Source of the DNA: an uncultured delta proteobacterium | GTDB lineage: Bacteria > Desulfobacterota > Desulfobacteria > Desulfobacterales > B30-G6 | Direction of reading: 5' to 3' | DNA: 32,000 bases | NCBI GenBank assembly: GCA_963823335.1 | Contig: CAWGLD010000001.1 | Coordinates: 556,548 to 588,547 of the forward strand | Part shown: positions 1,239 through 22,299 of the stretch, one piece after another | Layout: each line of letters starts with the position of its first letter | Numbering within the stretch: position 1 is the first letter of the stretch | Notes under the pieces: generated by a model | What the model was told of the DNA's origin: nothing | The model's database searches: none | Seen by the model: only the letters and a program-made list of their open reading frames with translations | Position numbers and translations under genes: made by a program

Positions 1239-2447
1239 ATGAACAACCCGCCTGCAGTAGCCGTTGTCGGTACATTTGATTCAAAGGGAGAAGAACATCT
1301 GTTCCTCAAGAACCGTATTGAAGAATTGGGGCTCCAGGTGTTGACCGTAAATGTCGGGACCAGAGAACCCATTCCCTTCGAAGTATCCCATGACCTGTAT
1401 GCGTCCATGAAAAAGGATGCGACACTGGATGACAGTAACCGGGACAAAGCCATTCAGGGAATGATCCATGGAGGCATACAGTTAATAAAACAACTGTATC
1501 GCGATGGTAAAATCCAGGCCATGATATCCGCCGGCGGTGGCAGTGGAACGCACCTCTGTTCCAGTATCATGCGCGAACTCCCTATCGGGGTTCCAAAGGT
1601 GATGGTTTCAACCGTTGCCTCTCGAGACATGAAGCACACTGTCGGCACCAAAGACATCACCATGATGCACAGCGTGGTGGACCTGCTGGGGGTGAACAGC
1701 ATTTCCGGAATTATTCTGGACAAGGCCGCAGCAGCCGTTTGCGGCATGACCATGAGTCAATGGCGGCCTGCTAAAGACAAAAGACGTATTGCACTCTCAT
1801 TTTTCGGCTTCATCACAAAATCGGCCGAAGCAGTTAAAAAGGCCCTGGAGGGCATGGGCTATGAAGTGATTCCCTTTCATGCCAATGGCACCGGCGGTAT
1901 GGCCATGGAGGAGCTGGCCGCAGAAGGATATTTTGACGGCATTCTCGATCTGGCAACCCATGAACTGGCCGATGCGTTGATGGGTGGCTACTGCAGCGGC
2001 ATCGGGCCCGGGCGTTTCGAGCCGTCTGCGGGGAAAAATATTCCCCGGCTGATCACACCGGGAGGTCTTGACTGTGCCGTGCTCGAATTTACTCGCCAGC
2101 ATGTTCCCGAAGAATACAGGAACCGCAAGGTATTTTATTATGACTTCAGATCCGCCATTCGCCTCACCCTCGAAGAGAGCCGGGTACTGGCTGAACAGCT
2201 GTCTGACAGACTGAACAAGGACGTGAAAAATGTTCATGTCCTGGTTCCCACCCAAGGATGGTCCGAAGCAGACCAGCAGGACGGACCGCTGTATGACCCT
2301 GAAACAAATGCATATCTGGTTAAAATTTTCAAAGAAAAACTGGACAAACGCATTCAGCTTCAGGAAATCGACATGCACATCAATGATCCTGGTTTTGCTC
2401 AAATTGCGGCCAATGTAATGGATCAGATGGTCAAAGAGCGCAGCTAA
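1239..2447 (+). CDS. UPF0261 / Tm-1-like ATP-binding domain protein, paralog 1
   Basis: 402 aa, ATG with AAGGA 7 nt upstream. Conserved blocks GGGSGT, PIGVPKVMVSTVASRD and GTKDITMMHSVVDLLGVN are shared with ORFs 3796-5007 and 15977-17188. Confidence 0.8.
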   Translation: MNNPPAVAVVGTFDSKGEEHLFLKNRIEELGLQVLTVNVGTREPIPFEVSHDLYASMKKDATLDDSNRDKAIQGMIHGGIQLIKQLYRDGKIQAMISAGGGSGTHLCSSIMRELPIGVPKVMVSTVASRDMKHTVGTKDITMMHSVVDLLGVNSISGIILDKAAAAVCGMTMSQWRPAKDKRRIALSFFGFITKSAEAVKKALEGMGYEVIPFHANGTGGMAMEELAAEGYFDGILDLATHELADALMGGYCSGIGPGRFEPSAGKNIPRLITPGGLDCAVLEFTRQHVPEEYRNRKVFYYDFRSAIRLTLEESRVLAEQLSDRLNKDVKNVHVLVPTQGWSEADQQDGPLYDPETNAYLVKIFKEKLDKRIQLQEIDMHINDPGFAQIAANVMDQMVKERS

Positions 2448-2487
2448 ATGTCTAACTCCGAATATCAAAAGCGGAGATCTTCCAAAA

Positions 2488-3366
2488 ATGATTATCAAAC
2501 CCGATTGCATCCCCTGTATCTTGAACATGTCTTTGCACTATCTTCGCAAACTGTCCCTTGGCGAGGAACAGGTCAACAAGATCTGTTCAGATATTCTGAC
2601 ATTGCGACCCCTCAGGGGAGAGATATGGGATATCACCAGCCCGGAAATCATCGAGCCGATCATGAAGAAAATCATGTCCGCTGTCGGCAGTCACGATCCC
2701 TTTGCAGTTGAAAGGGTAAAGCAGAACCAGAAGATGCTGACGCTGTATCCACAGCTGCAAAAAATGGTAAAGACAGCTGAGCATCCATTTAAAGCAGCAG
2801 CACACCTCGCCGGTCTTGGAAATGCCATCGATGTCATGCTGGTGGGGGGTGCCACAGATATTCAGAAAATCATCAAAGAACAACTCGCCGATCCTCTGCC
2901 GGAAAATGTATTAGAGATACTTGAAAAACGGATCATGAGCAGTCGCCACATTCTCTACTTTGGCGACAATGCCGGAGAAATCGTTCTGGACAGGCTGTTC
3001 ATCGAAACGATCAAAGAGCACTATGATACAGACATTACCTTTGTGGTCAGAAGTATGCCGACCTTGAACGATGCAACCCTGAAAGATGCAGAACAGACAG
3101 GTATGGCCAATCTGGTGCGTGTCATGGAGAACGGTATCGATGGTCCTGTCCCCGGAACCCTGCTGAATCGATGCTCAGGTGAGTTGCAGCGTCTTTTTCA
3201 GGAGGCGGATCTGATCATATCCAAAGGCGGTGGGAATTTTGACACCCTGGATGAGCTGCCGGAGAAGCGCAAAAGCAAGATATCCTATCTGCTGCTGTCA
3301 AAATGCCGCCCCTACCAAGAGCATTTTGGTGTGGGATTGCAGCGGGCGATACTATTTAACGCTTAG
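2488..3366 (+). CDS. DUF89 (ARMT1-like) metal-dependent phosphatase family protein
   Basis: 292 aa. N-terminal KPDCIPCILN CxxC, GDNAGEIVLD and SKGGGNFDTL blocks are typical of the DUF89 damage-control phosphatase family. Confidence 0.75.
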   Translation: MIIKPDCIPCILNMSLHYLRKLSLGEEQVNKICSDILTLRPLRGEIWDITSPEIIEPIMKKIMSAVGSHDPFAVERVKQNQKMLTLYPQLQKMVKTAEHPFKAAAHLAGLGNAIDVMLVGGATDIQKIIKEQLADPLPENVLEILEKRIMSSRHILYFGDNAGEIVLDRLFIETIKEHYDTDITFVVRSMPTLNDATLKDAEQTGMANLVRVMENGIDGPVPGTLLNRCSGELQRLFQEADLIISKGGGNFDTLDELPEKRKSKISYLLLSKCRPYQEHFGVGLQRAILFNA

Positions 3367-3380
3367 AGAACTTTAAAAAA

Positions 3381-3562
3381 GGGTTTGAGGGTGATACAAG
3401 GGTGGTACAAGGGTTCGAGGGGGATAAAGGGGTTCGAGGGTCAGAGGGGGATACAAGGGTTGGAGGGTGGCTGACAGCAGTTAGCGAAAGGCACCTAATA
3501 GTCTACAGTCTAAACCGCTAAAAGGCTAACCAGGGGTGGAGGGTGGTACAGGGGTTGGAGGG
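3381..3562 (+). repeat. Composite intergenic repeat, copy B (long G-rich arm, core 3469-3496, CTAAA tail, second G-rich arm)
   Basis: Starts 14 nt after the DUF89 stop. Core GGCTGACAGCAGTTAGCGAAAGGCACCT and tail are near-identical to copy A. Confidence 0.85.
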
Positions 3563-3568
3563 AAATAA

Positions 3569-3790
3569 CTGTCATTTGCTTCGCGTAAATGAAAATGTTT
3601 CAGCTGTTAGGTTTTAAGTGTTAGGTAAGTCACGGGCTAAGAGCAACAATAAATTACGCGCGCAGCGCAAATGACAGCCGAAGGCGAAATGTCGCGCGCA
3701 GCGCAAATGTCGTCCGCTAGGACAAATGACGCACGAAGTGCAAATGACATCCGAAGGATAAATGACGCCTGAAAGGCGAATGCACAGGGG
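3569..3790 (+). repeat. AAATGAC 18-nt tandem and inverted repeat element, copy 1
   Basis: Left arm TGTCATTTGCTTCGCG (inverted unit). About seven tandem units AAATGACNNCCGNAGGNN run from 3651 to 3778 with 18-nt phase (units begin 3651, 3669, 3687, 3705, 3724, 3742, 3760). A CAGCTG plus GTTTTAAG/GTTAGG module is nested at 3601-3630. Homologous to 28818-28985. Confidence 0.85.
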
Positions 3791-3795
3791 GGCCC

Positions 3796-5007
3796 ATGCA
3801 GAAACCAAGCGTACTTCTTGTGGCAACAATGGATACCAAGTTCAGGGAAGCCGGCTTCATAGAATCCTGTCTCAAAGAATCCGGCTGTGCGGTCACGGTT
3901 ATGGATGCCGGGATTCGTGGCGATAGCCCCGTACCTGTCACAATTACAAGACACGAAGTCGCCCGGGCCGGCGGAAAAACATTATCGGAAATTCAATCCA
4001 TAGGCCACGAAGGCGAAGCTCTCAACATGATGCTCATGGGCGCCTGCAGGATTGCGGACGAAATGATCGCCAAGGGTGCCGTCATTGGTGTCATAAGTCT
4101 GGGCGGCTCCATGGGAACCACACTCGGTACGGGTGTCATGCGCCGATTTCCCATCGGGGTCCCAAAGGTGATGATCTCCACCATGGCCTCCAGGGATACC
4201 CGCACGTTTGTGGGAACAAAAGACATTCTTATGCTGCACGCCGTCTGTGATCTCTCGGGCCTCAACCGGTTTTCGAGAAAAATACTCCACAACGGCGCCA
4301 TGGCCCTCTACGGCATGGTGTCCCGGAGCCGGAAAGACATTTCATCAGACAAATCCATGATCTTTATTTCCACTCTGGGAACCACCGAGAAATGTGTTCA
4401 GGAGATACGCGCCTCCCTCGAAAAACAGGGTAAGGAAGTCGTGGTCTTTCACACGGTGGGTTCCGGCGGCAGAGCCATGGAAGAACTCATCGCCTCAGAA
4501 CCGGTTGAAGCCCTGGTGGACCTCTCCCTGCATGAAATGGCGGATCATCGTTTCGGAGGGGATTACGATGCAGGACCTGACAGGGGTTCCGTGGCATTGA
4601 AAAAGGGGATTCCGGTCGTCCTGGTACCCGGAAATATCGATTTTCTTGTGTCAGGACCGCTGGAGCAGTCCCTGAAAGATTTTCCCGATCGGCCGTACCA
4701 TGTTCACAATACAGCCATTACGGTTGTACGAACGACCCGTGAAGAGATTGAAAGCATTGCCCGGCATGTAGGGGATTATTGTAATGCCGCCCCTGGACCG
4801 TACACCCTGGTAATTCCCATGAAGGGATTTTCAGCCTTTGACGCCATAGAGGGGCCGCTTCACGACCCCCAGGCACCGACCTGCTTTGTCAAAGCCCTGG
4901 AATCCCAGCTGTCCGACACATCACGGATGCACACCCTGCCATACCACATCAATGATTCCGGCTTTTCTGCAGCTGTGATTGAAAAGCTCCAAGAACTGTT
5001 GCCCTGA
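3796..5007 (+). CDS. UPF0261 / Tm-1-like ATP-binding domain protein, paralog 2
   Basis: 403 aa. Carries GGSMGT, PIGVPKVMISTMASRD and GTKDILMLHAVCDLSGLN, the same block order as paralogs 1 and 3. Confidence 0.8.
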   Translation: MQKPSVLLVATMDTKFREAGFIESCLKESGCAVTVMDAGIRGDSPVPVTITRHEVARAGGKTLSEIQSIGHEGEALNMMLMGACRIADEMIAKGAVIGVISLGGSMGTTLGTGVMRRFPIGVPKVMISTMASRDTRTFVGTKDILMLHAVCDLSGLNRFSRKILHNGAMALYGMVSRSRKDISSDKSMIFISTLGTTEKCVQEIRASLEKQGKEVVVFHTVGSGGRAMEELIASEPVEALVDLSLHEMADHRFGGDYDAGPDRGSVALKKGIPVVLVPGNIDFLVSGPLEQSLKDFPDRPYHVHNTAITVVRTTREEIESIARHVGDYCNAAPGPYTLVIPMKGFSAFDAIEGPLHDPQAPTCFVKALESQLSDTSRMHTLPYHINDSGFSAAVIEKLQELLP

Positions 5008-5013
5008 TCTCTA

Positions 5014-5388
5014 TCAGAAGCCATCAACAACCATCTTCCTGAAAAAAGCTATTGTGTCTTTTGCTTCAGTAATTACTGAATAAATAAGAACGCAAAACTG
5101 AAGACCAAAAATAACGCTTTCTAAAATAAAGAACTGTCTTGGGCTTGCGGTAAAAACAAGAAAAGGAACCAGTATCGCCGATAGCCAGAGAAAAATATAA
5201 CGGAATATAATCTTTTTCTTCCGATTTTTTTCCCTTATCAGAGAAATAATTTTCAACATAACATAAACAATAATAATATCCGAGATGCTCCACAATATCC
5301 CTTGAACTTTTGTGGTCAACAGATAGGCTTCTGTTGAAAAGCTCTTACCTATTTCCCAAAAAAACATATCTGTTAATTCTGAGATCAT
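5014..5388 (-). CDS. Hypothetical small integral membrane protein (AT-rich islet)
   Basis: 124 aa, several hydrophobic helices. Start overlaps the upstream gene stop (ATGA at 5385-5388). Helix ILWSISDIIIVYVMLKIISLIR resembles helices of the 198-aa neighbour. Confidence 0.55.
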   Translation of the reverse strand: MISELTDMFFWEIGKSFSTEAYLLTTKVQGILWSISDIIIVYVMLKIISLIREKNRKKKIIFRYIFLWLSAILVPFLVFTASPRQFFILESVIFGLQFCVLIYSVITEAKDTIAFFRKMVVDGF

Positions 5389-5981
5389 GCTAGCTTCTTT
5401 TTTAATAGGAAGAATATTTTAAGCCCAATCAGACCAACAATCCATTCTATGATAATCCAGAACATCCCGCATATTTTGATGTAAAAAGTAAAAGAATTTT
5501 GTATGTTCCTATGGGTATACCCGTCCATATCGACCAATGAGCCAAGATATGAATGGTAGGCAGCATAAAATGAAAAAAGACCTAGGAAGAATATACCCGG
5601 CCCAAATAAAAGAATCCTATTAAGTATTGGTTTTTTTCTCTCGATAACAATTCTTAACAGATTATAGATTTTGAAAACATAAATAACGATAGCCGCCTCG
5701 ATTGCTACCCAGAGGGTGCAAAAGAAATTCCACAAATAGCTGTAATAGAAATATCCTAATGGTTTGTATTTATTGCTTAAATACTTGTCGATATGTATCT
5801 CCTGGCCGAAGTTCAAACAGACAAGAAGAACAAAAACAGTGATACAAAAATAGATAAATGCTATTTGCCGGGCGTCACCATTTTTAAGAAAAATAAACCC
5901 TTTTCTGATATAAATCATAACCAATCCTTCGGCGAACAGCCAAAAGATTCCCATGATCTTTATAAAGAATGATAAACTCAT
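5385..5981 (-). CDS. Hypothetical integral membrane protein with an internally repeated W-x3-E helix motif (AT-rich islet)
   Basis: 198 aa. Three similar helices: IMGIFWLFAEGLVMIYIRKGFIFLK, CTLWVAIEAAIVIYVFKIYNLLR and ICGMFWIIIEWIVGLIGLKIFFLLK. Confidence 0.55.
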   Translation of the reverse strand: MSLSFFIKIMGIFWLFAEGLVMIYIRKGFIFLKNGDARQIAFIYFCITVFVLLVCLNFGQEIHIDKYLSNKYKPLGYFYYSYLWNFFCTLWVAIEAAIVIYVFKIYNLLRIVIERKKPILNRILLFGPGIFFLGLFSFYAAYHSYLGSLVDMDGYTHRNIQNSFTFYIKICGMFWIIIEWIVGLIGLKIFFLLKKKLA

Positions 5982-6014
5982 GTCTCTTAACCTGGATGAC
6001 GCCTACAACATTTT

Positions 6015-6695
6015 CTAAACGAGCATATCCGTCAAATCCGCGATGCTGTCAATGACGGCATCCGGGTTTTCCCGGCTCAACGCTTTATGGTCGTCAAACC
6101 CGGTGAGCACGCCAACCGTCTTCATCCCGGCTGCCTTACCCGCCTGAATATCTATACGCGCATCCCCCACATACATGCAGTCCCGGGGCAGGACGCCAAG
6201 ACTTTTACAGCCCTTTATCAATGGATCCGGCGCCGGCTTTTTACGGGGTGCATCCTCTGCATGGATGATGAACTCCAGCAGCTTGTCAATGCCTGAGTCC
6301 ACCAGTGTCGGCAGTTTGACCGCCATGCTTTGCCGGGGCGTGGATGTAACAATGCCCATCCTGATCCCTTTTTGCACCATGGCCTGCAGGGCTTTTTTTG
6401 CATCAGGGATCAGTTTTACCTGGTTTCTGAAAAGATTTGGATATATTTCGGCAATGATCTCACGGGTTTTCTTTATCAGGTGGTCTTTTTCTTGGGGTGT
6501 TTTTTTCGGGAACACACTGCCCCATTCAAAATCACCATTTTTTGCTGCCTCCCGAAGTCTGTCCCTGGAAGGCATCGGAAAATCGAGTCGATTGAATACT
6601 ATTTCAATAATCTGGTAGTATATGTGAATGGAGTCCAGAATCGTTCCATCGAGGTCAAACAAAACAGCAGTCACATTAATTTTCTTATTGTTCAC
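6015..6695 (-). CDS. HAD-superfamily hydrolase (subfamily IA, phosphoglycolate phosphatase/PpaX-like)
   Basis: 226 aa. Motif I VLFDLDGTILDS, motif II IVTST, and C-terminal YVGDARIDIQAGKAAGM. Confidence 0.8.
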   Translation of the reverse strand: MNNKKINVTAVLFDLDGTILDSIHIYYQIIEIVFNRLDFPMPSRDRLREAAKNGDFEWGSVFPKKTPQEKDHLIKKTREIIAEIYPNLFRNQVKLIPDAKKALQAMVQKGIRMGIVTSTPRQSMAVKLPTLVDSGIDKLLEFIIHAEDAPRKKPAPDPLIKGCKSLGVLPRDCMYVGDARIDIQAGKAAGMKTVGVLTGFDDHKALSRENPDAVIDSIADLTDMLV

Positions 6696-7277
6696 CTAAT
6701 TATCCTGCGCTTTCTTCTTGTGCATCCAAAAATAGTAAAAGGCCAACAAGGTCATGCCATTGTCGATGCGATTGTCATGAATCTCGGAAGAAACATGGGC
6801 CAGGGGAAGCTTGATGACATCCAGGTCTTCCCCTTCATCCAAGGCGGGTGCCTGCTGAAATTCAGCATCCATGGCCAGGCATACAACACATTTGTTGCTC
6901 AATATGGCCGGCTGGGGAAAACATTCACCAATCACACGAAAATCCCTGGATCCATAGCCGGTCTCCTCCAAAAGCTCTCTCCGGGCGGCTGCAATGGGAG
7001 AAGGATCATCCGGGTCCACCAGCCCGCCAGGCAGCTCCAGGTGTACCTTCTCGGTGCCATGGCGGTACTGGTTGACCATCACGACTTCCTGTTCCGCGGT
7101 AAGCGCCAGCACCACAACCCAGGTGGGGAAGTGAATGGCCATCACATTCATGGTCTTCCCGGTTCTGGGCGAGCGTGCCTCTTTTGATTCTATCTGCATG
7201 AGTTTGAAATCATGCAGGATTTTTCGATTCAATATTTTCCACGGTCGGATCATTCTGACAACTCCTTGATTACGCAA
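6696..7277 (-). CDS. Nudix hydrolase (ADP-ribose pyrophosphatase/NudF-like)
   Basis: 193 aa. QYRHG block and Nudix box GGLVDPDDPSPIAAARRELLEETGY. The stop abuts the HAD start codon. The true start may be the internal Met at 7250. Confidence 0.8.
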   Translation of the reverse strand: MRNQGVVRMIRPWKILNRKILHDFKLMQIESKEARSPRTGKTMNVMAIHFPTWVVVLALTAEQEVVMVNQYRHGTEKVHLELPGGLVDPDDPSPIAAARRELLEETGYGSRDFRVIGECFPQPAILSNKCVVCLAMDAEFQQAPALDEGEDLDVIKLPLAHVSSEIHDNRIDNGMTLLAFYYFWMHKKKAQDN

Positions 7278-7279
7278 TG

Positions 7280-7400
7280 TTTTAGGTGTTAGGTATTAAG
7301 TTTTAGGTTCAGCCACAAGACAGGTGCCCCTTTGCTGTCCGCTAATGGCCGTCACCCTTATACCACCCTCCGACCCTCCAACCCCCTCATCACCCTCACC
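7280..7400 (-). repeat. Composite intergenic repeat, copy E (reverse orientation, diverged core)
   Basis: The reverse complement reads GGTGAGGGTGATGAGGGGGTTGGAGGGTCGGAGGGTGG...GACGGCCATTAGCGGACAGCAAAGGGGCACCT...CCTAAAACTTAATACCTAACACCTAAAAC. Its G-rich arm overlaps the LysR stop codon. Confidence 0.7.
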
Positions 7401-8343
7401 TCTGCTGGGCCAGTATCTTCAACATCAAGGCCCCGATATCCTGTGGTCGCATATCTTCGGAGCGTAATTTTTTCAAGACTTTTTCAAAAGCCCTGGCAGG
7501 CATGGACAAGGGTTGCTTTTTCAGGTAGGCAAAACTGACGTCAAGATAAATCTGTTGTCCTTTGAGGGGAATCGTGGCCAATTTTCCTTCTTCGATTTCC
7601 GCAGCCACACAGGCCTTCACAAGAATGGAAACCCCCTCCCCTTTCTGAACCAGCTGTTTGATAAATTCGTTGTTACTGGTTTCCATGAGAACATTGGGTG
7701 TACAATCATGCTGTTTAAAAAGCATGTTCACGCGCTTTCGGGTTCCTGAACCTGTTTCCTTCATGATCAGCGGCTCTTTAGCCAGGTCCTGGGGGGAGAT
7801 GTCTCCTTCGGCTGTCAGCGGGTGATTTACCGGAACAACAAGAATCAGCTCTTCCTGACTGAAAGGAACAAATGTAACCGCTGGATTCTCTGATGCCTTT
7901 GCAATGACAGCCACTTCATTCTTGAATTCCAGGAGGGTGTTGGTCATGTCCAGTGAGCTGCCCTCATCCAGATGAATTTTGATGCCGGGGTAGTCTTTAT
8001 GAAAGCTGGAGAGCAGCGACGGCATAAAATAGCGCGCATAGGTCTTGGTGGTTCCCAGCCTCAGAACACCCCGTTTCAGCTCCTTCATGTCATCGATGAC
8101 GTTCTCGATTTCTTTTTCATATTGAAAGATTTTCTGGGTGTATTCATACAGTGTCTTGCCTTCTTCCGTCAGATGTATCTGGCGTCCCTTTTTCTTGAAC
8201 AGCTTCAGGTTGCATCCTTCTTCCAGTGCCTTGACCTGGGCCGTTACAGCCGGTTGTGTTACGAAGAGCATGCCTGCCGCAACCGTAAAACTGGCATGCT
8301 TCGCTGCATAATGAAAGGTCCTGAGCTGGTTGAAGTTCAACAT
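7396..8343 (-). CDS. LysR-family transcriptional regulator
   Basis: N-terminal HTH MLNFNQLRTFHYAAKHASFTVAAGMLFVTQPAVTAQVKALEE. Start moved from 8409 to the ATG at 8343, which has an AAGGAAG RBS and gives the canonical LysR N-terminus. Confidence 0.9.
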   Translation of the reverse strand: MLNFNQLRTFHYAAKHASFTVAAGMLFVTQPAVTAQVKALEEGCNLKLFKKKGRQIHLTEEGKTLYEYTQKIFQYEKEIENVIDDMKELKRGVLRLGTTKTYARYFMPSLLSSFHKDYPGIKIHLDEGSSLDMTNTLLEFKNEVAVIAKASENPAVTFVPFSQEELILVVPVNHPLTAEGDISPQDLAKEPLIMKETGSGTRKRVNMLFKQHDCTPNVLMETSNNEFIKQLVQKGEGVSILVKACVAAEIEEGKLATIPLKGQQIYLDVSFAYLKKQPLSMPARAFEKVLKKLRSEDMRPQDIGALMLKILAQQR

Positions 8344-8414
8344 GAACGTCTTCCTTTTTGAAGTATCTCCCAACAAGTCACGGGGCAAGCGCGCGCTGTC
8401 GTGTTTCAAAACTT

Positions 8415-8431
8415 TTATTTATGGAAAATAA
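8415..8431. promoter_or_regulatory. Candidate LysR-type operator (inverted repeat TTATTT-N5-AAATAA)
   Basis: Perfect 6-bp arms containing a T-N11-A, about 72 bp upstream of the LysR start, in the AT-rich divergent region. A second 12-bp palindrome ATAAATATTTAT lies at 8498-8509. Confidence 0.35.
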
Positions 8432-8660: not shown

Positions 8661-10517
8661 ATGCCGGACGAAAAAGGAAGATTTCCAGATCCCCACGAGA
8701 TTCAGGTTCCCCCGGAACTTGAGGGATGGGAGGAGATGTATCCATCACATCACCTCTTTTCCAAGGACAGAGCAGACTGGGAAAAAGCGCAATTCTGGTA
8801 TCAGGACAAGATCCATGCACCCGAGCCGGTGCCACCCCTGGATCTCATTTTTCAGGAGGCGTGGCAGATCTCCCTTTCCCAGTACACTACCCGGGTATTT
8901 TGTATTCCACCTGCCCAGGGAATCGCCCAGAGAATGGTGGGCTGTTACCTGTACATCTGTGCCATTGCGCCCCCACCCGACGAAATTATCGGCCAGAAAG
9001 CAGCCCTGTTCGAAAAACGCGTTTTCTATGTATTTGAGCACTATGATGAACTGTGGGAAAAATGGCTCACAAAGTTCAAGGCGCTGGGCCAGGAAATGGA
9101 GGACGTGAAGGTCCCGGCGGAGTTGCCGAAATTTGTTCCGGATGATGAAGTGCTGCCCGCGCCTAAGGGCTACTACGATTCATACACACTCCTCGAATCT
9201 TTCGACAAACTTGTCAACCAGATGTTCAAGGGCTGGCAATATCATTTTGAAATGCTCAATCTGACCTATCTGGCCTACCTCATGTTTGCCGATGTAGCCA
9301 GAAAACTTTTCCCGGGAATCAGTGAAAGCGCCATCGGCAAGATGGTGGCCGGCGCATATGTTTCCATGTTCAAACCGGAGGAGGAATTGTGCCGACTCGC
9401 CAGACTGGCACATTCGACCCAGGCCGTGGCGGATATTTTAAGGAGCGACAACACGGCGGCGGAAAAAATCGCCACGCTTGAAAAAATATCTGAAGGTAAA
9501 AACTGGCTGGCGGAATATGAAAAATCCAAAGACCCCTGGTTCTCTGTGTCCTGCGGCAGCGGCTGGTTTCATCATGAAGGCAGCTGGACAACCAACCTCG
9601 ATATTCCTTTCAGCTATCTCAAGAGTTATGTGGACCGTTTAGCCAATGGAGAAACCATCGAACGTGCCCTGGAGGAGATCGGTAAAGAACGGGACAAAAT
9701 CGTCGAAGAATACAAAAATCTCATCCAGACCGACGAAGACAGACAATCCTTCGACGGTGCCTACAACACCATCCGAACCATCTATCGATATGCCGAGGAT
9801 CATCTCTTCTGGGTGGAACATTGGTTCCATACCATTTGGTACAGAAAAATCCGGAAGATCGGGAAACTGCTTGTCGACAACGGGATGATCGATCAAGTGG
9901 ATGACATTTTCATGTTCAACCGTTACGAAATTCCGCAACTTCTGACCGAAGTTTCAACGGCCTGGGCCCTGGGCGTAGACATACCCATGAGAAGTTCCCA
10001 CTACAAGGCCAAGGTTGTCAAGCGTCGAAGCATTCTGGAGGCCGCCGGAAAATGGAATCCGACACCGGCACTGGGTGTTCCGCCTGCAGAAGTGGCCGAG
10101 CCGTTTACGATCATGCTGTGGGGCATCACCACGGACAGGGTGCAGGAATGGCTCAAGGGCGTCGATGCGGCCCAGGAAGGCGATGTTTCCGAAATCAAAG
10201 GCTTTGCTTCTTCCGCCGGTGTAGCTCAAGGACCCGCAAGGGTACTGAAGTTACTCAAGGACATCCTGGATCTGCAGCCCGGAGAAGTACTGGTTTGTCC
10301 CTCAACCAACCCGTCCTGGGCACCTGTTTTTACCAACATCAAAGCAGCCGTTACCGACATTGGCGGTCTCACAAGTCATGCGGCCATCGTCTGCAGAGAA
10401 TACGGTATTCCGTCCGTCACGGGGACGGGTGTGGCTACGTCTGTTATCAAGACCGGCGATATCGTCAAGGTAGACGGCGATACGGGTTTGGTAGAGGTAA
10501 TCGAACGGGCAGGGTAA
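8661..10517 (+). CDS. Phenylphosphate-synthase alpha-like subunit (PEP-utilising enzyme mobile phospho-His domain, no ATP-grasp domain)
   Basis: 618 aa with strong RBS AAAGGAGGA. C-terminal swivel domain [23 protein letters not shown] holds the phospho-His. N-terminus [16 protein letters not shown] resembles PpsA-type proteins. Confidence 0.8.
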
Positions 10518-10555
10518 TCCGACACCTACGTTGCCCGAACAACCATTTAAGCATG

Positions 10556-10586
10556 TTTGGAGCGGTGTAACCAACGCCGCTCCAAA
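10556..10586 (+). other. Intercistronic stem-loop (10-bp perfect stem, 11-nt loop, no U-tract)
   Basis: TTTGGAGCGG-tgtaaccaacg-CCGCTCCAAA lies between the two synthase subunit genes. Confidence 0.6.
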
Positions 10587-10615
10587 CTTCCTAAAACCCG
10601 TAAACGGGGGTGGAA

Positions 10616-11686
10616 ATGGAGTATGTTCTTACTTTCCTGGAGGTAGACAAAAATTCACTGTCGCTGGTTGGCGGCAAAAACGCCAGTCTGGGAGAATTGA
10701 TAAAGGCGGACATTCGCGTGCCTCCCGGTTTTGCCGTAACCACGGAGAGTTATCATAAATTTATCACCGAAACCGGGATCAGGGACAAGATTTTCCAAAT
10801 ACTATCGGACATGAAGCCGGGAGACATTGCCGCCCTGAATGCCGCCAGCGAAAGTATCCAGACGCTGATACAGGGTTCAGCCCTGTCGGAAGACATCCGA
10901 TCGGCCATCGAAAAAGCATATGCGGAGCTCTGCGCCGACTGCCGGGTAATCGACATGCCGGTGGCGGTTCGTTCAAGCGCTACGGCCGAAGACCTGCCCA
11001 CGGCCAGCTTCGCCGGTCAACAGGACACCTATCTCTGGATTCAGGGTCACAAAGATGTCGCGGAAAAGGTTCAGCGCTGCTGGGCCAGCCTGTTTACACC
11101 CCGGGCCATCGATTATCGTGTAAAAAATAAGTTTGCACATGAGAAAGTTCTGATCAGCGTAGGGGTTCAGAAAATGGTGAACTCCAGAGCTGCCGGGGTT
11201 ATGTTTACATTGAACCCGACCGACGGCGACCTGTCCAAGGTCGTTATCGAAGGCAGCTGGGGGCTGGGGGAGACTGTCGTTTCCGGCTCCGTCAATCCGG
11301 ACAAGTTCGTGGTAGACAAGGTGGTCATGGAAACTTCAGACAAGACCATTTCCACCAAACACATCGCCTGCGTATACGACCCGCAGGCAGGTAAGGTCGT
11401 GGATGCGGATGTGGATGAAGACATGCAGTGCAAATGCTGTCTGGAGGATATGGAAGTCAAGGCCCTGGTGAGCATGGGCAAGTTGATCGAACGGCACTAC
11501 AAGCGCCCCATGGACATCGAATGGGCCATCGATAAAGACCTCGATTTCCCCGAGAATATCTTTATCGTGCAGGCGCGGCCGGAGACCGTCTGGAGCCAGC
11601 GTAAGACACGCTCGCTAATCGGCGCTAAAAGCGGCTATCAACTTTTGATGGAACAGGCCATGAAACGGATCAAGATACCCAGTTAA
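10616..11686 (+). CDS. Phenylphosphate-synthase beta-like subunit (PEP/pyruvate-binding ATP-grasp domain of PEP synthase)
   Basis: The ORF track starts at GTG 10610. The ATG at 10616 has ACGGGGG 5 nt upstream. LVGGKNASLGEL, VAVRSSATAEDLPTASFAGQQDTYL and DIEWAID are PPDK_N/PpsA N-domain hallmarks. Confidence 0.85.
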   Translation: MEYVLTFLEVDKNSLSLVGGKNASLGELIKADIRVPPGFAVTTESYHKFITETGIRDKIFQILSDMKPGDIAALNAASESIQTLIQGSALSEDIRSAIEKAYAELCADCRVIDMPVAVRSSATAEDLPTASFAGQQDTYLWIQGHKDVAEKVQRCWASLFTPRAIDYRVKNKFAHEKVLISVGVQKMVNSRAAGVMFTLNPTDGDLSKVVIEGSWGLGETVVSGSVNPDKFVVDKVVMETSDKTISTKHIACVYDPQAGKVVDADVDEDMQCKCCLEDMEVKALVSMGKLIERHYKRPMDIEWAIDKDLDFPENIFIVQARPETVWSQRKTRSLIGAKSGYQLLMEQAMKRIKIPS

Positions 11687-11691
11687 AAAAT

Positions 11692-11835
11692 AGGGTTCGA
11701 GGGTCCGAGGGTCCGAGTGGCGAAGGGTGGCTGACGGCAGTGAGCGAAAGGCACCTGCAGCCTATCGTCTAAACGCCTAAAAGAAGTGCTTGGTTCTCAG
11801 CTGAAATTAACACTAAAACCTAAAACCTAAAACGA
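11692..11835 (+). repeat. Composite intergenic repeat, copy C (G-rich arm, core 11729-11756, CAGCTG plus CTAAAAC x3 tail)
   Basis: Starts 6 nt after the PpsB-like stop. Core GGCTGACGGCAGTGAGCGAAAGGCACCT is identical to copy D. Confidence 0.85.
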
Positions 11836-11944
11836 AAATACTGCACTAACGTCTATACCGCAAAAAAAATCGTTTGGTAAAAATCATATGGGTTTTGTTT
11901 GCATGTTTGTTCAATTCTAACCAATAAAGGAGGACTGTTGCTCT

Positions 11945-13351
11945 ATGAAGAACATGAGAGATTTTATCACAGAAGGTGAGAAAAAGGGCCTGTGTAAACG
12001 AATTTCAGCTGAAGTCGATTGGAATCTGGAGTTGTCGCATATCGCCAAACTCAATGAAGAGCAAAAGGGTCCGGCGCTGCTGTTTGAAAATGTGAAGGAC
12101 TATGACACACCGGTGATTACCAGTGTCTGTACCACCCCTGAAAGACTGGCATTTATCCTTGGTCAACCATTGGATTCCACGCTTGTAGATCTCTACGCGC
12201 ACTGGGCCAAGCTGGGGGACAACCTGTTGGAGCCCAAGTATGTGGAAAAAGCGGATGCGCCATGCAAAGAGAATATCATCACCGGGGACGACATTGACCT
12301 TTTCAAATTCCCCGTGCCGCAGTGGTATCCTCTGGACGGGGGCCGTTATATCGGGACCGCTCATTTCTTCATCAGCAAGGATCCCGAAACCGGCTGGGTA
12401 AACCTGGGAACCTACAGGGCTCAGCTATTGGGAAAAGACAAGATTGGCACCCAGTTTATCAAGGGCAAACATGCCGACATCATGCTGAAGAAATATCAAG
12501 CCATGGGGAAACCCATGCCGGTGGCTTCAGTAATCGGGTGTGATCCTCTGCTTTTTATCCTCGGTGCAGCACGCGTTTCAGCTTTTACTTCAGAATACGA
12601 TGTGGCAGGCGCCCTGCGCGGTGAGCCTGTAGAAGTCGTTAAAGGAGAAATCGTCGATCTGCCCATTCCGGCACATGCCGAGATCGTGCTCGAAGGAGAA
12701 GTGGATGCCGACAAATTTATGGAAGAAGGACCGTTCGGTGAATATACCGGGTATTATTCCGGCGTTGGTACGGATCCACGCAATTTCATGGATGTCCAAT
12801 GTGTCACCCATCGTAACAATCCGATTCTCTGGGGAACCACCGTCGGCCGGGCCGTTACAGACACGCACATGACCATGGCACTGTCATATGGGGCCACCCT
12901 TTGGCAACAATTGTTGGCCATGAAGATTCCAGGCTTGAAAGCGGTTTACTGCCCGCCGGAAGGCTCCGGACGGTTTTTGGCCATCATCTCCATGAAGCAG
13001 ATGTATCCCGGGCATGCAGACCAGGTGCTCACGGCTGCCATTTCAACGGAAATGGGTGCCTATGGTCTGAAAACCGTCATCGTCGTGGATGAGGATATCG
13101 ACCCCTGGGATATTCCCCGGGTCCTGTATGCCTTGAGTTTCAGATTCCAGCCCAACCGCAGTCAGGTCATCAAGAGAGGGCGGTCCACACCACTGGATCC
13201 GTCTCTGCCCATCAATGCGCGGGAAATTACCGGTAGACTTTTGTTGGATGCCACCATACCCTATGACTGGAAACACAAACCGATTCCCATTGAACTGGAC
13301 GCGGAAATGGTGAAAAGAGTCAAGTCGCGATGGTCTGAGTTGGGGTTATAA
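11945..13351 (+). CDS. UbiD-family (de)carboxylase, phenylphosphate-carboxylase alpha/beta-like
   Basis: 468 aa. VDWNLELSHIAKLNEEQKGPALLFE, EGPFGEYTGYY and KRGRSTPLDP blocks are typical of UbiD/Ppc-type carboxylases. AGGAGG lies 11 nt upstream. Confidence 0.85.
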   Translation: MKNMRDFITEGEKKGLCKRISAEVDWNLELSHIAKLNEEQKGPALLFENVKDYDTPVITSVCTTPERLAFILGQPLDSTLVDLYAHWAKLGDNLLEPKYVEKADAPCKENIITGDDIDLFKFPVPQWYPLDGGRYIGTAHFFISKDPETGWVNLGTYRAQLLGKDKIGTQFIKGKHADIMLKKYQAMGKPMPVASVIGCDPLLFILGAARVSAFTSEYDVAGALRGEPVEVVKGEIVDLPIPAHAEIVLEGEVDADKFMEEGPFGEYTGYYSGVGTDPRNFMDVQCVTHRNNPILWGTTVGRAVTDTHMTMALSYGATLWQQLLAMKIPGLKAVYCPPEGSGRFLAIISMKQMYPGHADQVLTAAISTEMGAYGLKTVIVVDEDIDPWDIPRVLYALSFRFQPNRSQVIKRGRSTPLDPSLPINAREITGRLLLDATIPYDWKHKPIPIELDAEMVKRVKSRWSELGL

Positions 13352-13385
13352 AAATAAAAACGCTCAATTTAGGAGGAGTTAGGTA

Positions 13386-13901
13386 ATGTCCGATACCGAC
13401 ATGATAGAAGACAAAAAGGTTCTGGTGGTTGATGATGAACAGGACATTCTGGAGGTTTTGGAAGAACTGCTGGATATGTGCCATGTGACAACAGCGTCGA
13501 CCTTTGATCAGGCTAAAACCCTGTTGGAAACCCAGGCCTTTGACATCGCGATTCTCGATATCATGGGGGTTGACGGATATCGCCTGTTGGAAATTGCCAA
13601 CAAGAAAAAGATACCCGCAATTATGCTTACAGCGCATGCATTCTCTGCCGGCAACCTGGTAAAGACCATCAAAGAGGGTGCCTATGCCTATGTTCCCAAA
13701 GAAGAAATCGGCCGGATCGCCGAGTTTCTTTCAGATGCCTTGAACGCCAAAAAACAAGGCAAAAATCCCTGGCGCGTCTGGGAGGAAAGACTGCCGTCAT
13801 CCTATTTTGAAAAAAGATGGGGGGCGGCCTGGAAGAATTCGGACCGGGACTTCTGGAACAAATTCAGGGAAAGCATCAAAACGCGGGATGGGAAAAAATA
13901 A
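13386..13901 (+). CDS. Stand-alone response-regulator receiver domain protein with a Trp-rich C-terminal extension
   Basis: 171 aa with AGGAGG RBS. VLVVDDE, phospho-acceptor AILDIMG, MLTAH and YVPKEE give the full receiver residue set. No DNA-binding domain. Confidence 0.8.
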   Translation: MSDTDMIEDKKVLVVDDEQDILEVLEELLDMCHVTTASTFDQAKTLLETQAFDIAILDIMGVDGYRLLEIANKKKIPAIMLTAHAFSAGNLVKTIKEGAYAYVPKEEIGRIAEFLSDALNAKKQGKNPWRVWEERLPSSYFEKRWGAAWKNSDRDFWNKFRESIKTRDGKK

Positions 13902-13912
13902 CGCAGTTATCC

Positions 13913-13934
13913 CCAACCAGGATAAACCGGTTGG
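13913..13934 (+). other. Stem-loop after the receiver gene (CCAACCAGG-ATAAA-CCGGTTGG, one bulge, no U-tract)
   Basis: Read directly from the sequence, 12 nt after the stop codon. Confidence 0.3.
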
Positions 13935-13980
13935 AGTGAAGCGAAAACCCTGGCTTGCCGGGGAAAAGATAAGACCTTTT

Positions 13981-14060
13981 ATCACGAAAGCACGAAAGTA
14001 CGAAAACACGAAAATTTTCATGGTCTTTTTCGTGTTTTTCAGATTTCGTGTTTTCGTGAT
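13981..14060. repeat. CACGAAA short-unit palindromic repeat (about 35-nt imperfect arms)
   Basis: ATCACGAAAGCACGAAAGTACGAAAACACGAAAA-ttttcatgg-...TTTTCGTGTTTTTCAGATTTCGTGTTTTCGTGAT. The left arm holds four CACGAAA-like units and the right arm their complements. Confidence 0.85.
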
Positions 14061-14158
14061 TGCTTATATTTTTTTGCCACATAATTTACAAATTTTACAG
14101 TGCTCTGTGTCATTTGGACTTTATAGATAAGCATGAAAAAGAAAGAAGGAGGTTTGAA

Positions 14159-15814
14159 TTGAAACCGATTCGTTACCAGAAAGATATGATCGATGAATTT
14201 GTGACCGATGGTTACTGGACCGAAGAGCTTTTCTATGACTTCTGGGATAGAAATGCCCGGGAAATCGGTAACCGGGAAGCGCTGGTAGACTCGAAATATC
14301 GCCTGACATGGTCTGAAGCCAAAAAACTGGTGGACGCCATGGCCATTTCCTGGGTGGAAATGGGAATTCCCAAACATTCCCGGGTCATCATTCAATCGCC
14401 CAACAGTGTCTACGGGTTTCTCGCCCGAATCGCCTGTGAGAGGGCCGGACTCATTTCTCTTACGGTCTATCCATACCTTCGTCAGAGGGAATTGGAGTAC
14501 ATGCTGGAGAAAACAGAGGCCAAGGCAGTCGTTATTCTGAACATCTACAACAAATTCAATTATCTAAAAATGTACACGGAGCTCCAGAAACAGTTTCCCC
14601 ATCTAAAATATTTTTTTCTTTTCGACGATGACGTTCCGGACGATGCGCCTGCGGGTACCTATTCGCTGCCCCGGATGACCCAGCTCCGGGCAGAAAAACC
14701 AGTGGACGCATCCGTGCTGGCAGAACGCAGGTTGGACCCGTTCTGGAACATCTCCCTGCTCACGACCACATCCGGCACCACCGGTATCCCCAAGCTGGTG
14801 GAGTGGCCCACCGCGCCCCGCGTCTGCACATCCAAAGGCAGATGCGCCATCTGGAACCTCAACCGTGACGACACCACCATGGCCATCGCCCCTCATGCCG
14901 GCGGAGCGGCTGGAACACTGACGTATTTCGCCGCCCCCATTGCCGGTGCCAAAACCGTGATGTTGGAGGAGTTTTCCGGCGAAGGCGCGCTGGCGCTCAT
15001 CGAAAAAGAGAAAGCTACGGCCATCGGTGTGGTTCCCACCCACCTTATACGGATGCTGGAGGCCGACGTCTCCAAATACGATCTGAGTTCTCTGCGGTTT
15101 ATCCGCTCGGCCGGCGGGTATTTATCACCCCAGGTGGCCGAAGAAGCTGAAAACGCATTTAAGGCAAGCATTACCAGCGACCTTGGGACCCAGGACAAGG
15201 GATCGGTGTCCGGGTGCAGCGTAGAGGATTCAAAGGATCTTCGCCGCAGAACCGTCGGCCGCATGCTTCCGGGCAACAAGGTGAGATTGCTGGACAAGGA
15301 CACCGGCAAAGAAGTGCCCGAGGGCGAACCCGGAGTTCTCTGGCTCAGGGGCCCCCACGCCCCGGCAGGATACTTCCGGGACGAGGAATTGACCGCCACG
15401 GTGTTCGACAAGGACGGATGGACCACCACGGAGGATATCGTCAAATTCGATCAGGGCTGTCTGTGGATTCTGGGCCGGGCCAAGGACATGATCATCCGGG
15501 GAGGACAGAACATCTATCCTGCAGAGATCGAGGGCCTGCTCAATGATCATCCCGGGGTATCGTCTGTAGCGGTTGTGGGGTATCCGGACCGGGAGATGGG
15601 TGAACGGTGCTGTGCCTACGTCATCCCCAAGCCTGGTGTGGATTTTTCCTTTGACGAAATGGTTTCTTTTCTCAAGGGGAAAAATATTGCCATGTTCAAA
15701 CTTCCGGAACGGCTCGAAATTGTGTCTGAGTTTCCCCTGGTGGGAGATTCGGGCAAGGTCAACAAGGAAACCTTGAAGGAACAGATCAAGGCATTGGTTG
15801 AGAAGGGGAGCTAA
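14159..15814 (+). CDS. AMP-forming aryl-carboxylate-CoA ligase (ANL superfamily, EntE/4-hydroxybenzoate-CoA ligase-like)
   Basis: TTG start at 14159 with AGGAGG 6 nt upstream; the ORF-track start at 14060 lies inside the palindromic repeat. Motifs TTTSGTTGIPKLVE, GRAKDMIIRGGQNIYPAEIE and C-terminal SGKVNK. Confidence 0.85.
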   Translation: MKPIRYQKDMIDEFVTDGYWTEELFYDFWDRNAREIGNREALVDSKYRLTWSEAKKLVDAMAISWVEMGIPKHSRVIIQSPNSVYGFLARIACERAGLISLTVYPYLRQRELEYMLEKTEAKAVVILNIYNKFNYLKMYTELQKQFPHLKYFFLFDDDVPDDAPAGTYSLPRMTQLRAEKPVDASVLAERRLDPFWNISLLTTTSGTTGIPKLVEWPTAPRVCTSKGRCAIWNLNRDDTTMAIAPHAGGAAGTLTYFAAPIAGAKTVMLEEFSGEGALALIEKEKATAIGVVPTHLIRMLEADVSKYDLSSLRFIRSAGGYLSPQVAEEAENAFKASITSDLGTQDKGSVSGCSVEDSKDLRRRTVGRMLPGNKVRLLDKDTGKEVPEGEPGVLWLRGPHAPAGYFRDEELTATVFDKDGWTTTEDIVKFDQGCLWILGRAKDMIIRGGQNIYPAEIEGLLNDHPGVSSVAVVGYPDREMGERCCAYVIPKPGVDFSFDEMVSFLKGKNIAMFKLPERLEIVSEFPLVGDSGKVNKETLKEQIKALVEKGS

Positions 15815-15817
15815 AAC

Positions 15818-15913
15818 AGGGTCCAGGGGTGATACAAGGGTGGTAAGAGGGTTCGAGGGTGGCTGACGGCAGTGAGCGAAAGGCACCTAAAAGCCTACAG
15901 TCTAAAGCCCTAA
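15818..15913 (+). repeat. Composite intergenic repeat, copy D (G-rich arm, core 15861-15888, CTAAA tail)
   Basis: Starts 4 nt after the CoA-ligase stop. The core is identical to copy C. Confidence 0.85.
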
Positions 15914-15976
15914 TTTTCTGAACTAGGTTCATCGGCTTTTCGCTAGTGTCCGTCCAAAAATAGAGATTTTCGCGTT

Positions 15977-17188
15977 ATGCCAAAGCAGATCCTGATCATA
16001 TCCACCCTGGACACCAAAGGGGTGGAAACACGTTACTTGAAGCAGAAAATCGAGGCGCTGGGTCTTTCCGCCATCCTCATGGATCTGTCCATGCGCGCTG
16101 ACGTTAAACTGCCGGCTGAAATAACCAATGCCCAGGTGGCTGAAGCAGGCGGCAGCAGCATCGAAGAAATCGGGCAATCCCGTGAACGAAGCAAGATCAC
16201 GAAAATCATGACGTCCGGGGCTTCCAAGCTGGCAAGGCAGTATTATGGCGAGGGCAGAATCGACGGTGTAATTGCAATGGGCGGATCCACCGGCACCCTG
16301 ATGGCATCCGATGTGATGCGGTCCCTCCCTTTTGGTGTTCCCAAGACAGTTATATCTTCTACGGCAGCACTTCCCGGTCTTTCCACCAGGTATATCGGAA
16401 CAGGGGATATTACGCTGTTTCATTCGGTAATCGAAATTTCCGGTCTTTCCAATTTGTTAAAAAACGTGATGGACAGGGCAGCACACGCCATCACCGCCAT
16501 GGTTCATGAGACAGTCACACCCCTGGTTACGGGCGAGGGAAAAGCCATCGCCCTGACCATGCTGGGTCCCTGTGAAAAATGTGCCAGCTTTGTCCGTATT
16601 GCCCTTGAAAAAGAAGGCTATCAGGTCATCGGCTTCTCCGCAGCCGGTGTGGGTGATCGGGCCATGGAACAGATGATCGCCGAAGGGTTTTTTCAGGGTG
16701 TCATCGACCTGGCGCCGGGTGGGGTCGGGGAGCATCTTTTCGGTTTTATGAGAGATGCAGGCCCGAATCGACTGGAAAATGCAGGCAGGATGGGAATTCC
16801 AATGATTGTTTCCACCTGCAGCGTCAATCACATGACACCCTCAAAGTCCAGATACCAAGCCGAATACCACCAGCGCCGCAAATATGACCTGGATAAATTT
16901 CGCACCTGGATACGATTGTCGCCGGAAGAGCTGCAGAGCGTTGCGCAAGCCTTTGCCGCGAAATTGAACAAAGCCGGCGGCCCGGTAAAATTCCTGATAC
17001 CGCAGAATGGTTGGTCTTCGGTGGACCAGCCCGGCAATCCGACCCACGATCCACAGGAGGACCGCATCTTCGTTGAGGTGCTGCAACAAAACCTGCGCCC
17101 GGACATCGACATCCTGGAAATACAGGCCAATATGGAAGACCCGGTCTTTGCCCAGGCTGTTGTTGAAACGGCATTGCATCTATTTTAA
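15977..17188 (+). CDS. UPF0261 / Tm-1-like ATP-binding domain protein, paralog 3
   Basis: 403 aa. Carries GGSTGT, PFGVPKTVISSTAA and GTGDITLFHSVIEISGLSN, with blocks collinear with paralogs 1 and 2. Confidence 0.8.
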   Translation: MPKQILIISTLDTKGVETRYLKQKIEALGLSAILMDLSMRADVKLPAEITNAQVAEAGGSSIEEIGQSRERSKITKIMTSGASKLARQYYGEGRIDGVIAMGGSTGTLMASDVMRSLPFGVPKTVISSTAALPGLSTRYIGTGDITLFHSVIEISGLSNLLKNVMDRAAHAITAMVHETVTPLVTGEGKAIALTMLGPCEKCASFVRIALEKEGYQVIGFSAAGVGDRAMEQMIAEGFFQGVIDLAPGGVGEHLFGFMRDAGPNRLENAGRMGIPMIVSTCSVNHMTPSKSRYQAEYHQRRKYDLDKFRTWIRLSPEELQSVAQAFAAKLNKAGGPVKFLIPQNGWSSVDQPGNPTHDPQEDRIFVEVLQQNLRPDIDILEIQANMEDPVFAQAVVETALHLF

Positions 17189-17245: not shown

Positions 17246-17361
17246 TCTGCTGGGAAGCGAGGATGCTTGGAGACTGGGATGCTGCTGTCCGTTTTTATCT
17301 CTCAGCCACCCTCGAATCCTTGGCCTCTGGAACCCTTTTTCCTAAAAAAAGCGAGGTACCC

Positions 17362-22274: not shown

Positions 22275-22299
22275 ATTATGGAATGGAGAGGAAAAGACA

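Follow-up and report, generated by a model that had tools for sequence, protein, structure and literature searches.

UPF0261 (MarK/Tm-1 family) proteins as putative accessories of single-UbiD clusters for anaerobic phenol-type activation

Here, we propose that three proteins of the UPF0261 (MarK/Tm-1) family, encoded in a stretch of 32,000 nucleotides from an uncultured delta proteobacterium of the Desulfobacterales (GenBank assembly GCA_963823335.1, contig CAWGLD010000001.1, positions 556,548 to 588,547 of the forward strand; hereafter the window), are dedicated accessories of a "type II" system for anaerobic phenol-type activation, acting in place of extra UbiD proteins and of the PpcC and PpcD subunits. 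We regard this proposal as evenly balanced between being right and being wrong. The type II system would consist of a LysR-type regulator, a PpsA-PpsB dikinase, one UbiD, a receiver-domain protein (REC), an aryl-CoA ligase and UbiX. The proposal starts from what we observe, namely family membership, residue patterns, synteny, a distribution complementary to that of the gamma (PpcC) and delta (PpcD) subunits, and phenol induction in Desulfatiglans anilini.

The initial annotation of the window, made from its letters alone, had suggested that the three genes have a specialised role that depends on ATP and is connected with the aromatic-activation genes next to them. This suggestion is strengthened by the synteny of UPF0261 genes with PpsAB, UbiD, ligase and UbiX in at least 14 GTDB families, as well as by the response of the D. 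anilini counterpart to phenol.

Three ancient UPF0261 paralogues

The three open reading frames, copy 1 (1239-2447), copy 2 (3796-5007) and copy 3 (15977-17188), all on the plus strand, encode intact two-domain proteins in which PF06792 (E 3e-52 to 7e-56; 178-189 bits) and PF23189 (E 2e-63 to 4e-68; 214-229 bits) are matched end to end, against a cut-off of 27 bits, and which score 374-488 bits with the NCBIfam model NF002674 (cut-off 335). Both domains being matched in each copy, the family assignment made in the initial annotation holds, and the collinear motif blocks that it listed, GGxxGT, P(I/F)GVPK..S(T/S) and GT(K/G)DI..H(S/A)V, are all present in an alignment of the three copies. A search of the whole genome (4.37 Mb in 11 contigs, 93.9% complete) found exactly three UPF0261 genes, all of them in the window. 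A profile search of the same genome found no gene with the PEP_hydrolase domain (PF09370), so that the partner missed in the window is missing from the genome as well, with none found hidden elsewhere in it.

Pairwise identity among the copies is 31-34%. In a tree of 144 full-length UPF0261 proteins, from which the D. anilini and Geobacter sequences were left out, copy 1 falls in clade C (n=22, support 0.99), copy 2 in clade D (n=15) and copy 3 in clade B (n=42, support 0.99). Metagenomes contain orthologues at about 65% identity to copy 1, about 63% to copy 2 and about 70% to copy 3, the last in many metagenome-assembled genomes. Moreover, all three copies are found again in seven of nine relatives from the same genus, on a single contig and with window-like spacing wherever the assembly permits. 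Judged by their sequences, the copies are ancient paralogues from three separate clades, each with widespread orthologues; the local triplication proposed in the initial annotation is excluded as a recent event because of the low identity, the three deep clades and their separate orthologue sets.

Orthologues of copy 1 (clade C) are found elsewhere before UbiX, before the LysR gene of Pps clusters, after a flavin reductase gene, or before a DUF89 gene. They typically form a tandem with a gene of clade A or D, and clusters with two UPF0261 genes of different clades are common. Clade A genes lie directly after UbiD, in clusters without a ligase. The UPF0261 genes that are partnered with PEP_hydrolase form a clade of their own (clade F), in host genomes without PpsA-like genes, and none of the window's three clades (B, C and D) is so partnered.

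The view, held in the initial annotation, that the family has no assigned biochemical function is outdated. MarK (Saro_1862; PDB 9MPY, 2025), a UPF0261 homodimer from Novosphingobium aromaticivorans, catalyses the ATP-dependent, ADP-releasing phosphorylation of acetovanillone and related para-carbonyl phenols at their phenolic hydroxyl (PMC12624787). Its nucleotide site is D14-T15-K16; the phenol is contacted by G195, T196, H219, F283, I285 and H304, with H219 bonding the phenolic oxygen, and the ketone is bound by H348 (PMC12624787). Across MarK homologues D14, T15, K16, G195, H219 and H304 are more than 90% conserved (PMC12624787).

MarK is also the closest solved structure to each copy (E 6e-46 for copy 1, 1e-99 with 336 bits for copy 2, and 3e-54 for copy 3). 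The nucleotide triad is present as D-T-K in copies 2 and 3 and as D-S-K in copy 1. Copy 2 in addition keeps G195, T196, H219, F283 and H304, with I285 replaced by V and H348 by F. In MarK numbering, the signature of copy 1 is D-S-K / G-F / H219 / C-V / Y304 / A348, with C at 283. Copy 3 keeps G195 and has S for H219, H for F283, T for I285, L for H304 and V for H348. Thus, of the highly conserved phenol-site residues G195, H219 and H304, all three are present in copy 2, G195 and H219 in copy 1, and G195 alone in copy 3, while the ketone-binding H348 is missing from all three copies. By its residues, copy 2 qualifies as a MarK-type protein and copy 3 fails to do so at the substrate site. A separate MarK-like clade (G-T, H219 and H304 kept) also occurs as UbiD-UPF0261 pairs in four loci (L066, L054, L089 and L071), with no PpsAB gene in the surrounding fetched DNA; the kinase of these pairs may stand in for the dikinase.

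Conserved neighbourhoods and alternative accessory sets

We sampled the phylum evenly (250 genomes, 52 of them with UPF0261) and took the neighbourhoods of 96 full-length UPF0261 genes. Fifty-four of these (56%, in 33 genomes) have a UbiD, UbiX or PpsA/B homologue no more than 9 kb away, 39 (in 25 genomes) are beside at least two of UbiD, UbiX and Pps, 9 (9%, in 8 genomes) are next to PEP_hydrolase, and 33 have no neighbour of these kinds. By chance, about 2% would be adjacent, because the UbiD, UbiX and Pps genes fill three loci in the window's own genome. Synteny with the aromatic-activation genes is thus present in this phylum, and the PEP_hydrolase partner, named in the initial annotation as the usual one, is a minority arrangement here (9/96 against 54/96). 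PpsA-like genes are found in 44 of the 250 genomes, 37 of which also have UPF0261, and in at least 22 genomes the two are on one contig within about 10 kb, spanning 13 GTDB families and the window's own.

Copy 3 belongs to a cluster with the order LysR (minus strand), PpsA, PpsB, UbiD, (REC), ligase, UPF0261, (LpdD) and UbiX, which is kept on more than 20 independent contigs at 62-91% identity. In the window, a LysR-type regulator gene (7396-8409, minus strand; Pfam), conserved in nearly all related loci, is divergent from the Pps operon, which runs on the plus strand with the PpsA/PpsB pair (PpsA-like, 8661-10517, PF00391, NF006153 847 bits; PpsB-like, 10610-11686, PF01326 E 3e-120), a UbiD of the phenylphosphate carboxylase beta type (11945-13351; TIGR02724, 507.7 bits against a cut-off of 468.95), a REC-only receiver protein (13386-13901; PF00072), an aryl/alicyclic-acid AMP-forming CoA ligase (14060-15814; PF00501 and PF13193), copy 3, and the flavin prenyltransferase UbiX (17263-17967; PF02441, NF004685 262 bits). 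The split into a PpsA with the PEP-utiliser mobile domain and a PpsB with the PPDK_N ATP domain is that of a phenylphosphate-synthase-type dikinase. UbiX is single-copy in the genome (tblastn), and the only second UbiD is on another contig and 33% identical.

Most copy-3-type loci have a REC protein between UbiD and the ligase. The ligase is the upstream neighbour of the clade B gene in all 39 loci with an upstream flank, the gap not exceeding 20 bp in about half of these, and the downstream neighbours vary (LpdD 11, UbiX 8, AOR 5, and others). Even where UbiX is at the head of the operon (L034, L035, L041 and L069), the clade B gene comes right after the ligase, and hence the fixed link is to the ligase and not to UbiX.

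In 2009, Schleinitz et al. reportedly recognised in Geobacter and Desulfatiglans a PpcB homologue only, and not the alpha, gamma and delta subunits, and the carboxylation route is said to have been a question since. We defined gamma by TIGR02725, delta by TIGR02726, and a canonical PpcABCD set as two UbiD-like proteins (alpha and beta) with gamma and delta in one cluster. In the window, the beta-type UbiD alone is clustered; profile searches of the window genome found no gamma, and the best match to delta has 89 bits against a cut-off of 282 and is on another contig. Among the seven PpsA-positive genomes without UPF0261, all five that were tested have PpcC-like genes as well as PpcD-like ones in tandem; these adjoin PpsA in four genomes, sharing its contig, and are on another contig in G193. 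Six canonical loci were fetched (L123-L128), consisting of those four clusters, that of G253, and a gamma/delta locus of G119, whose PpsA is on a different contig. All six have three UbiD paralogues and UbiX, five have a CTP-riboflavin-kinase-like gene, single ones have a NUDIX, HD or flavin reductase gene, and none has a ligase, REC or UPF0261 gene.

Gamma was found in 8 of 39 further PpsA-positive genomes; in G041, G082, G119, G185, G253 and G212, either UPF0261 is unlinked to the Pps cluster or gamma/delta is on a separate contig from it. No gamma was found in any of the 18 clade-B genomes or of the 8 clade-A genomes. The distributions of gamma/delta and of UPF0261 (clades A/B) are thus complementary, which argues for two alternative accessory sets for Pps-UbiD systems: type I has extra UbiD paralogues with gamma and delta, and type II has one UbiD with UPF0261, usually together with REC and the ligase. 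Since members of a single family, and in one case of a single genus (G051 and G161), can differ in architecture, the pattern is not simple phylogenetic inertia.

The phe cluster of D. anilini DSM 4660 contains UbiD (02059), ligase (02058), UPF0261 (H567DRAFT_02057) and UbiX (02056) genes, and the UPF0261 genes of this organism have been drawn as uncharacterised in the published papers, with no role assigned (PMC7500099). The label-free areas published for 02057 are 0 on 4-aminobenzoate, 5.0e7 on aniline, 5.3e7 on benzoate and 2.5e9 on phenol; those for 03869, the UPF0261 protein of the ani cluster, are 5.4e9, 6.5e8, 0 and 0 on the same substrates, and those for the UbiX 02056 are 0, 0, 0 and 3.9e7 (PMC7500099 Table_1). 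The gene for 03869 is placed between a PpsB-like gene and the ligase, in a cluster (03867-03872) without UbiX (PMC7500099). From the published areas, 02057 is induced about 50-fold by phenol and is about 65 times more abundant than UbiX.

Proposed roles and competing explanations

In light of this distribution, what might the role of the three proteins be? In the mechanism that we favour, the N-terminal domain would bind ATP or ADP, the C-terminal pocket would bind a phenolic ring or its phosphate ester, and a phosphoryl group would pass from nucleotide to aryl oxygen or back. Copy 2 would most likely be an ADP-forming kinase for phenol or another phenolic, so that UbiD would receive aryl phosphate for half the ATP that PpsAB spends. 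Copy 1, with its ATP site and His219 kept and a different pocket, could be a kinase for some other phenolic or a heterodimer partner. Copy 3 would be the core member, genetically welded to the CoA ligase, and would most likely take part in the aryl-phosphate-to-phenolate step at the carboxylase-ligase stage; its altered pocket is the reason for placing it there and not at phenol phosphorylation. In Thauera, this step is handled by the delta subunit. One detailed version, which we put forward as unlikely in this exact form, is that copy-3-type proteins are the aryl-phosphate:ADP phosphotransferase subunit of a single-UbiD "type II" carboxylase, stripping the phosphate from phenylphosphate or from the phosphorylated product, delivering phenolate to UbiD or the ligase, and rephosphorylating ADP.

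Receiver domains use an Asp-phosphate chemistry that resembles that of HAD phosphatases, and by analogy the REC protein could act as a phosphoryl acceptor comparable to PpcD. The phe cluster of D. anilini also encodes an abundant, phenol-induced receiver-domain protein of 175 aa (H567DRAFT_02050), which can be likened to the REC protein of the window by domain type only (PMC7500099).

Several points weigh against the proposal. We infer all catalytic roles of the members of clades A-E from sequence. Copy 3 is without His219, which makes a MarK-like catalytic cycle doubtful for it. The recombinant synthase and carboxylase of D. anilini converted aniline to 4-aminobenzoate without a UPF0261 protein (PMC7500099), and so UPF0261 is not strictly essential in vitro. 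Two genomes (G275 and G084) have gamma/delta and UPF0261 mixed in one cluster, the gamma model behind the counts given above is short (84 positions) and may miss divergent homologues, and the survey counts are affected by relatives that are not independent data points. Finally, orthologues of copies 1 and 2 often have a PhdC-like flavin reductase gene and a CTP-riboflavin-kinase-like gene beside them, an arrangement that would suit a cofactor role just as well.

The alternative that survives best, possible but clearly less probable than the accessory role, is that the UPF0261 proteins are extra forward kinases of the MarK type, which would let further phenolics (cresols, catechol, hydroquinone, anilines, hydroxybenzaldehyde) enter one UbiD carboxylase or offer a cheaper ATP-to-ADP route beside PpsAB, and which would have no role in the carboxylase. 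This agrees with the known chemistry of MarK, the full MarK residue set of copy 2, the induction of distinct D. anilini paralogues by distinct substrates, and the UbiD-UPF0261 pairs of clade G without Pps, but leaves unexplained why clades A/B and gamma/delta with extra UbiDs exclude each other, why clade B is welded to the ligase, and why clade B has lost both His219 and His304.

Another option, raised in the initial annotation and disfavoured by the present data, is that UPF0261 serves the supply or maturation of prenylated flavin mononucleotide (prFMN), either as a kinase making dimethylallyl phosphate (DMAP) or FMN for UbiX or as an ATP-dependent, anoxic prFMN loader or maturase for UbiD. 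The frequent position of UPF0261 next to LpdD, UbiX, NUDIX, HAD or HD genes speaks for it, together with the flavin reductase and riboflavin-kinase-like neighbours mentioned above. However, the canonical gamma/delta clusters have UbiX, and most have the CTP-riboflavin-kinase-like gene, yet none has UPF0261; the invariant neighbour of clade B is the ligase, also where UbiX heads the operon; the ani cluster of D. anilini has UPF0261 and no UbiX; an abundance about 65 times that of UbiX makes 02057 look like a pathway enzyme and not an enzyme of cofactor synthesis; and NUDIX already offers a route from dimethylallyl diphosphate (DMAPP) to DMAP. Because clusters with UPF0261 genes of the copy-3 type, or with related ones next to UbiD, have one UbiD and no PpcC, whereas those without them have three UbiDs with PpcC and PpcD, we take the UPF0261 proteins to be alternative phosphotransfer accessories and not prFMN suppliers, and consider the latter role unlikely, though less so for copies 1 and 2, whose orthologues often have flavin genes beside them.

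Slightly more doubtful still is that copy 3 is a non-catalytic pseudo-kinase for ATP sensing or scaffolding, either as the heterodimer partner of a catalytic paralogue or as a regulator or chaperone of the CoA ligase. Such a role would be consistent with its kept nucleotide motif and lost His219 and His304, with the dimeric state of MarK and Tm-1, and with the common occurrence of two UPF0261 genes of different clades per cluster. Against it, one family has clade B in the Pps cluster as the sole UPF0261 gene in four of six sampled genomes, so that no partner is available there, and an identity of about 70% across distant lineages argues for a demanding function. That the clustering is incidental and UPF0261 belongs to unrelated metabolism, as the 33 of 96 genes without such neighbours might indicate, is very improbable and already largely refuted by an adjacency of 56% against an expected 2% or so, kept across at least 14 families, and by the substrate-specific induction in D. 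anilini.

Should the accessory proposal hold, a MarK-family phosphotransferase, widespread, phenol-induced and mutually exclusive with gamma/delta, would be a concrete candidate, overlooked until now, for the component missing from phenylphosphate carboxylation in strict anaerobes. The recently discovered MarK kinase family, so far tied to the aerobic breakdown of lignin monomers, would then reach into the anaerobic degradation of phenol and aniline. The analysis also defines a clade that lacks His219 and is coupled to aryl-CoA ligases, and the subject bears on bioremediation and on the enzymatic fixation of CO2 onto aromatic compounds. If copy-3-type proteins do pass the phosphoryl group back to ADP, energy-starved sulfate reducers would activate phenol anaerobically for roughly half the ATP. 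In extracts of D. anilini, no phenylphosphate carboxylase activity could be shown, and the assay recipe lists no nucleotide, at least in the available part of the published account (PMC6114531); the same return of phosphate to ADP would explain, as far as that account goes, why carboxylase assays run without nucleotides failed.

Further features of the window and known systems

The genes of the window are, in order, SmpB, HNH, copy 1, DUF89, copy 2, a low-GC insert, HAD, NUDIX and LysR on the minus strand, and then PpsA-like, PpsB-like, UbiD, REC, AMP-ligase, copy 3, UbiX, Fe-S genes, AOR and an EutA-like gene. The local settings described in the initial annotation are all correct: copy 1 precedes DUF89, copy 2 lies behind a repeat-filled gap, and copy 3 is between the ligase and UbiX. 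The DUF89/ARMT1-like metal-dependent phosphatase gene (2488-3366, plus strand; PF01937 E 2e-49) starts 40 bp after copy 1; DUF89 is directly 3' of copy-1-type genes in 2 of 22 cases, the window being one, and the pair also occurs in L007. A DUF89-type phosphatase in the acetovanillone pathway was considered and rejected, the phosphatase there, HpeD, being NagD-like and not DUF89; we take the NagD-like type to belong to the HAD superfamily.

Copy 2 is preceded by a gap of 429 bp with tandem repeats, including an 18/36-nt tandem array at 3651-3780, and GGGT-rich repeat units are shared between 3388-3468 and 15817-15860, directly past the stop codons of DUF89 and the ligase. The segment at 5014-5981 has a GC content of 0.34 and two minus-strand open reading frames without a Pfam match, and the depth of metatranscriptome and metagenome contigs is near zero at 5313-5976; the segment looks like a strain-specific insertion. 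Metatranscriptome contigs otherwise cover the whole region, with genes of both strands, near-evenly; this coverage speaks to the presence of close relatives at estuarine and sediment sites and not to operon structure or induction. One such contig spans copy 3 and UbiX, which is compatible with co-transcription. The UbiX reading frame as listed has an N-terminal extension of 35 residues beyond the Flavoprotein domain, and the ATG at 17362, preceded by a purine-rich stretch, is probably the start, more so than 17263.

Co-oriented with LysR on the minus strand are the genes for a HAD hydrolase (6015-6695) and a NUDIX hydrolase (6696-7277), both assigned by Pfam. NUDIX with HAD or HD hydrolase genes recurs just upstream of LysR and, in some loci, between UPF0261 and UbiX, and is a plausible DMAPP-to-DMAP step for UbiX. 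Many relatives have the gene of an LpdD-type chaperone of reduced prFMN (prFMNH2) between the copy-3 orthologue and UbiX (for instance L006, 11265-11657); LpdD is absent from the window and was not found by tblastn in the whole genome. A CTP-dependent riboflavin-kinase-like gene (PF01982) adjoins UbiX in several canonical clusters, is also near orthologues of copies 1 and 2 elsewhere (coordinates of this gene: L124, 14338-15401; L126, 2976-3931; L128, 3861-4812; L026, 2814-3227), and was not found in the window genome by tblastn; possibly it serves prFMN as a dedicated source of FMN. A tungsten-type AOR with a polyferredoxin (20334-24255 in the window) recurs next to these clusters (L075-L087, L015, L020 and L023), and AOR is directly 3' of the copy-3 orthologue in one family, a neighbourhood that hints that 4-hydroxybenzaldehyde is an intermediate of the pathway or an alternative substrate.

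How does the window compare with known systems? Two candidate comparisons were rejected: the ORM2 "Magic" benzene cluster, since the paper on it describes unrelated genes, and UbiB-dependent decarboxylation, which is a UbiD-independent activity. With the PpsABC/PpcABCD system of Thauera aromatica, the window shares PpsA, PpsB, a PpcB-type UbiD, UbiX and a divergent regulator, but it has a single clustered UbiD, no PpcC and no clustered PpcD, and in place of PpcC, PpcD and the extra UbiDs it has REC, CoA ligase and UPF0261 genes. The phe cluster of D. anilini (02049-02059) has the same gene order of UbiD, ligase, UPF0261 and UbiX, and the UPF0261 proteins of phe and ani are detected and substrate-specifically induced; unlike the window, phe carries 4-hydroxybenzoyl-CoA reductase genes.

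Tomato Tm-1 and the bacterial UPF0261/PF09370 pairs have the same N- and C-terminal UPF0261 domains as the copies (E 1e-46 to 3e-61 to PDB 3WRW and 3WRY), whereas the window genome is without the TIM-barrel partner anywhere. MarK resembles the copies in its two-domain UPF0261 architecture without a PEP-hydrolase partner and in being encoded in an aromatic-catabolic operon that also encodes a carboxylase and a phosphatase. It differs in belonging to an aerobic acetovanillone pathway with a biotin carboxylase, whereas the UPF0261 genes of the window are set in a strictly anaerobic PpsAB/UbiD/UbiX system in which a dikinase is already present.

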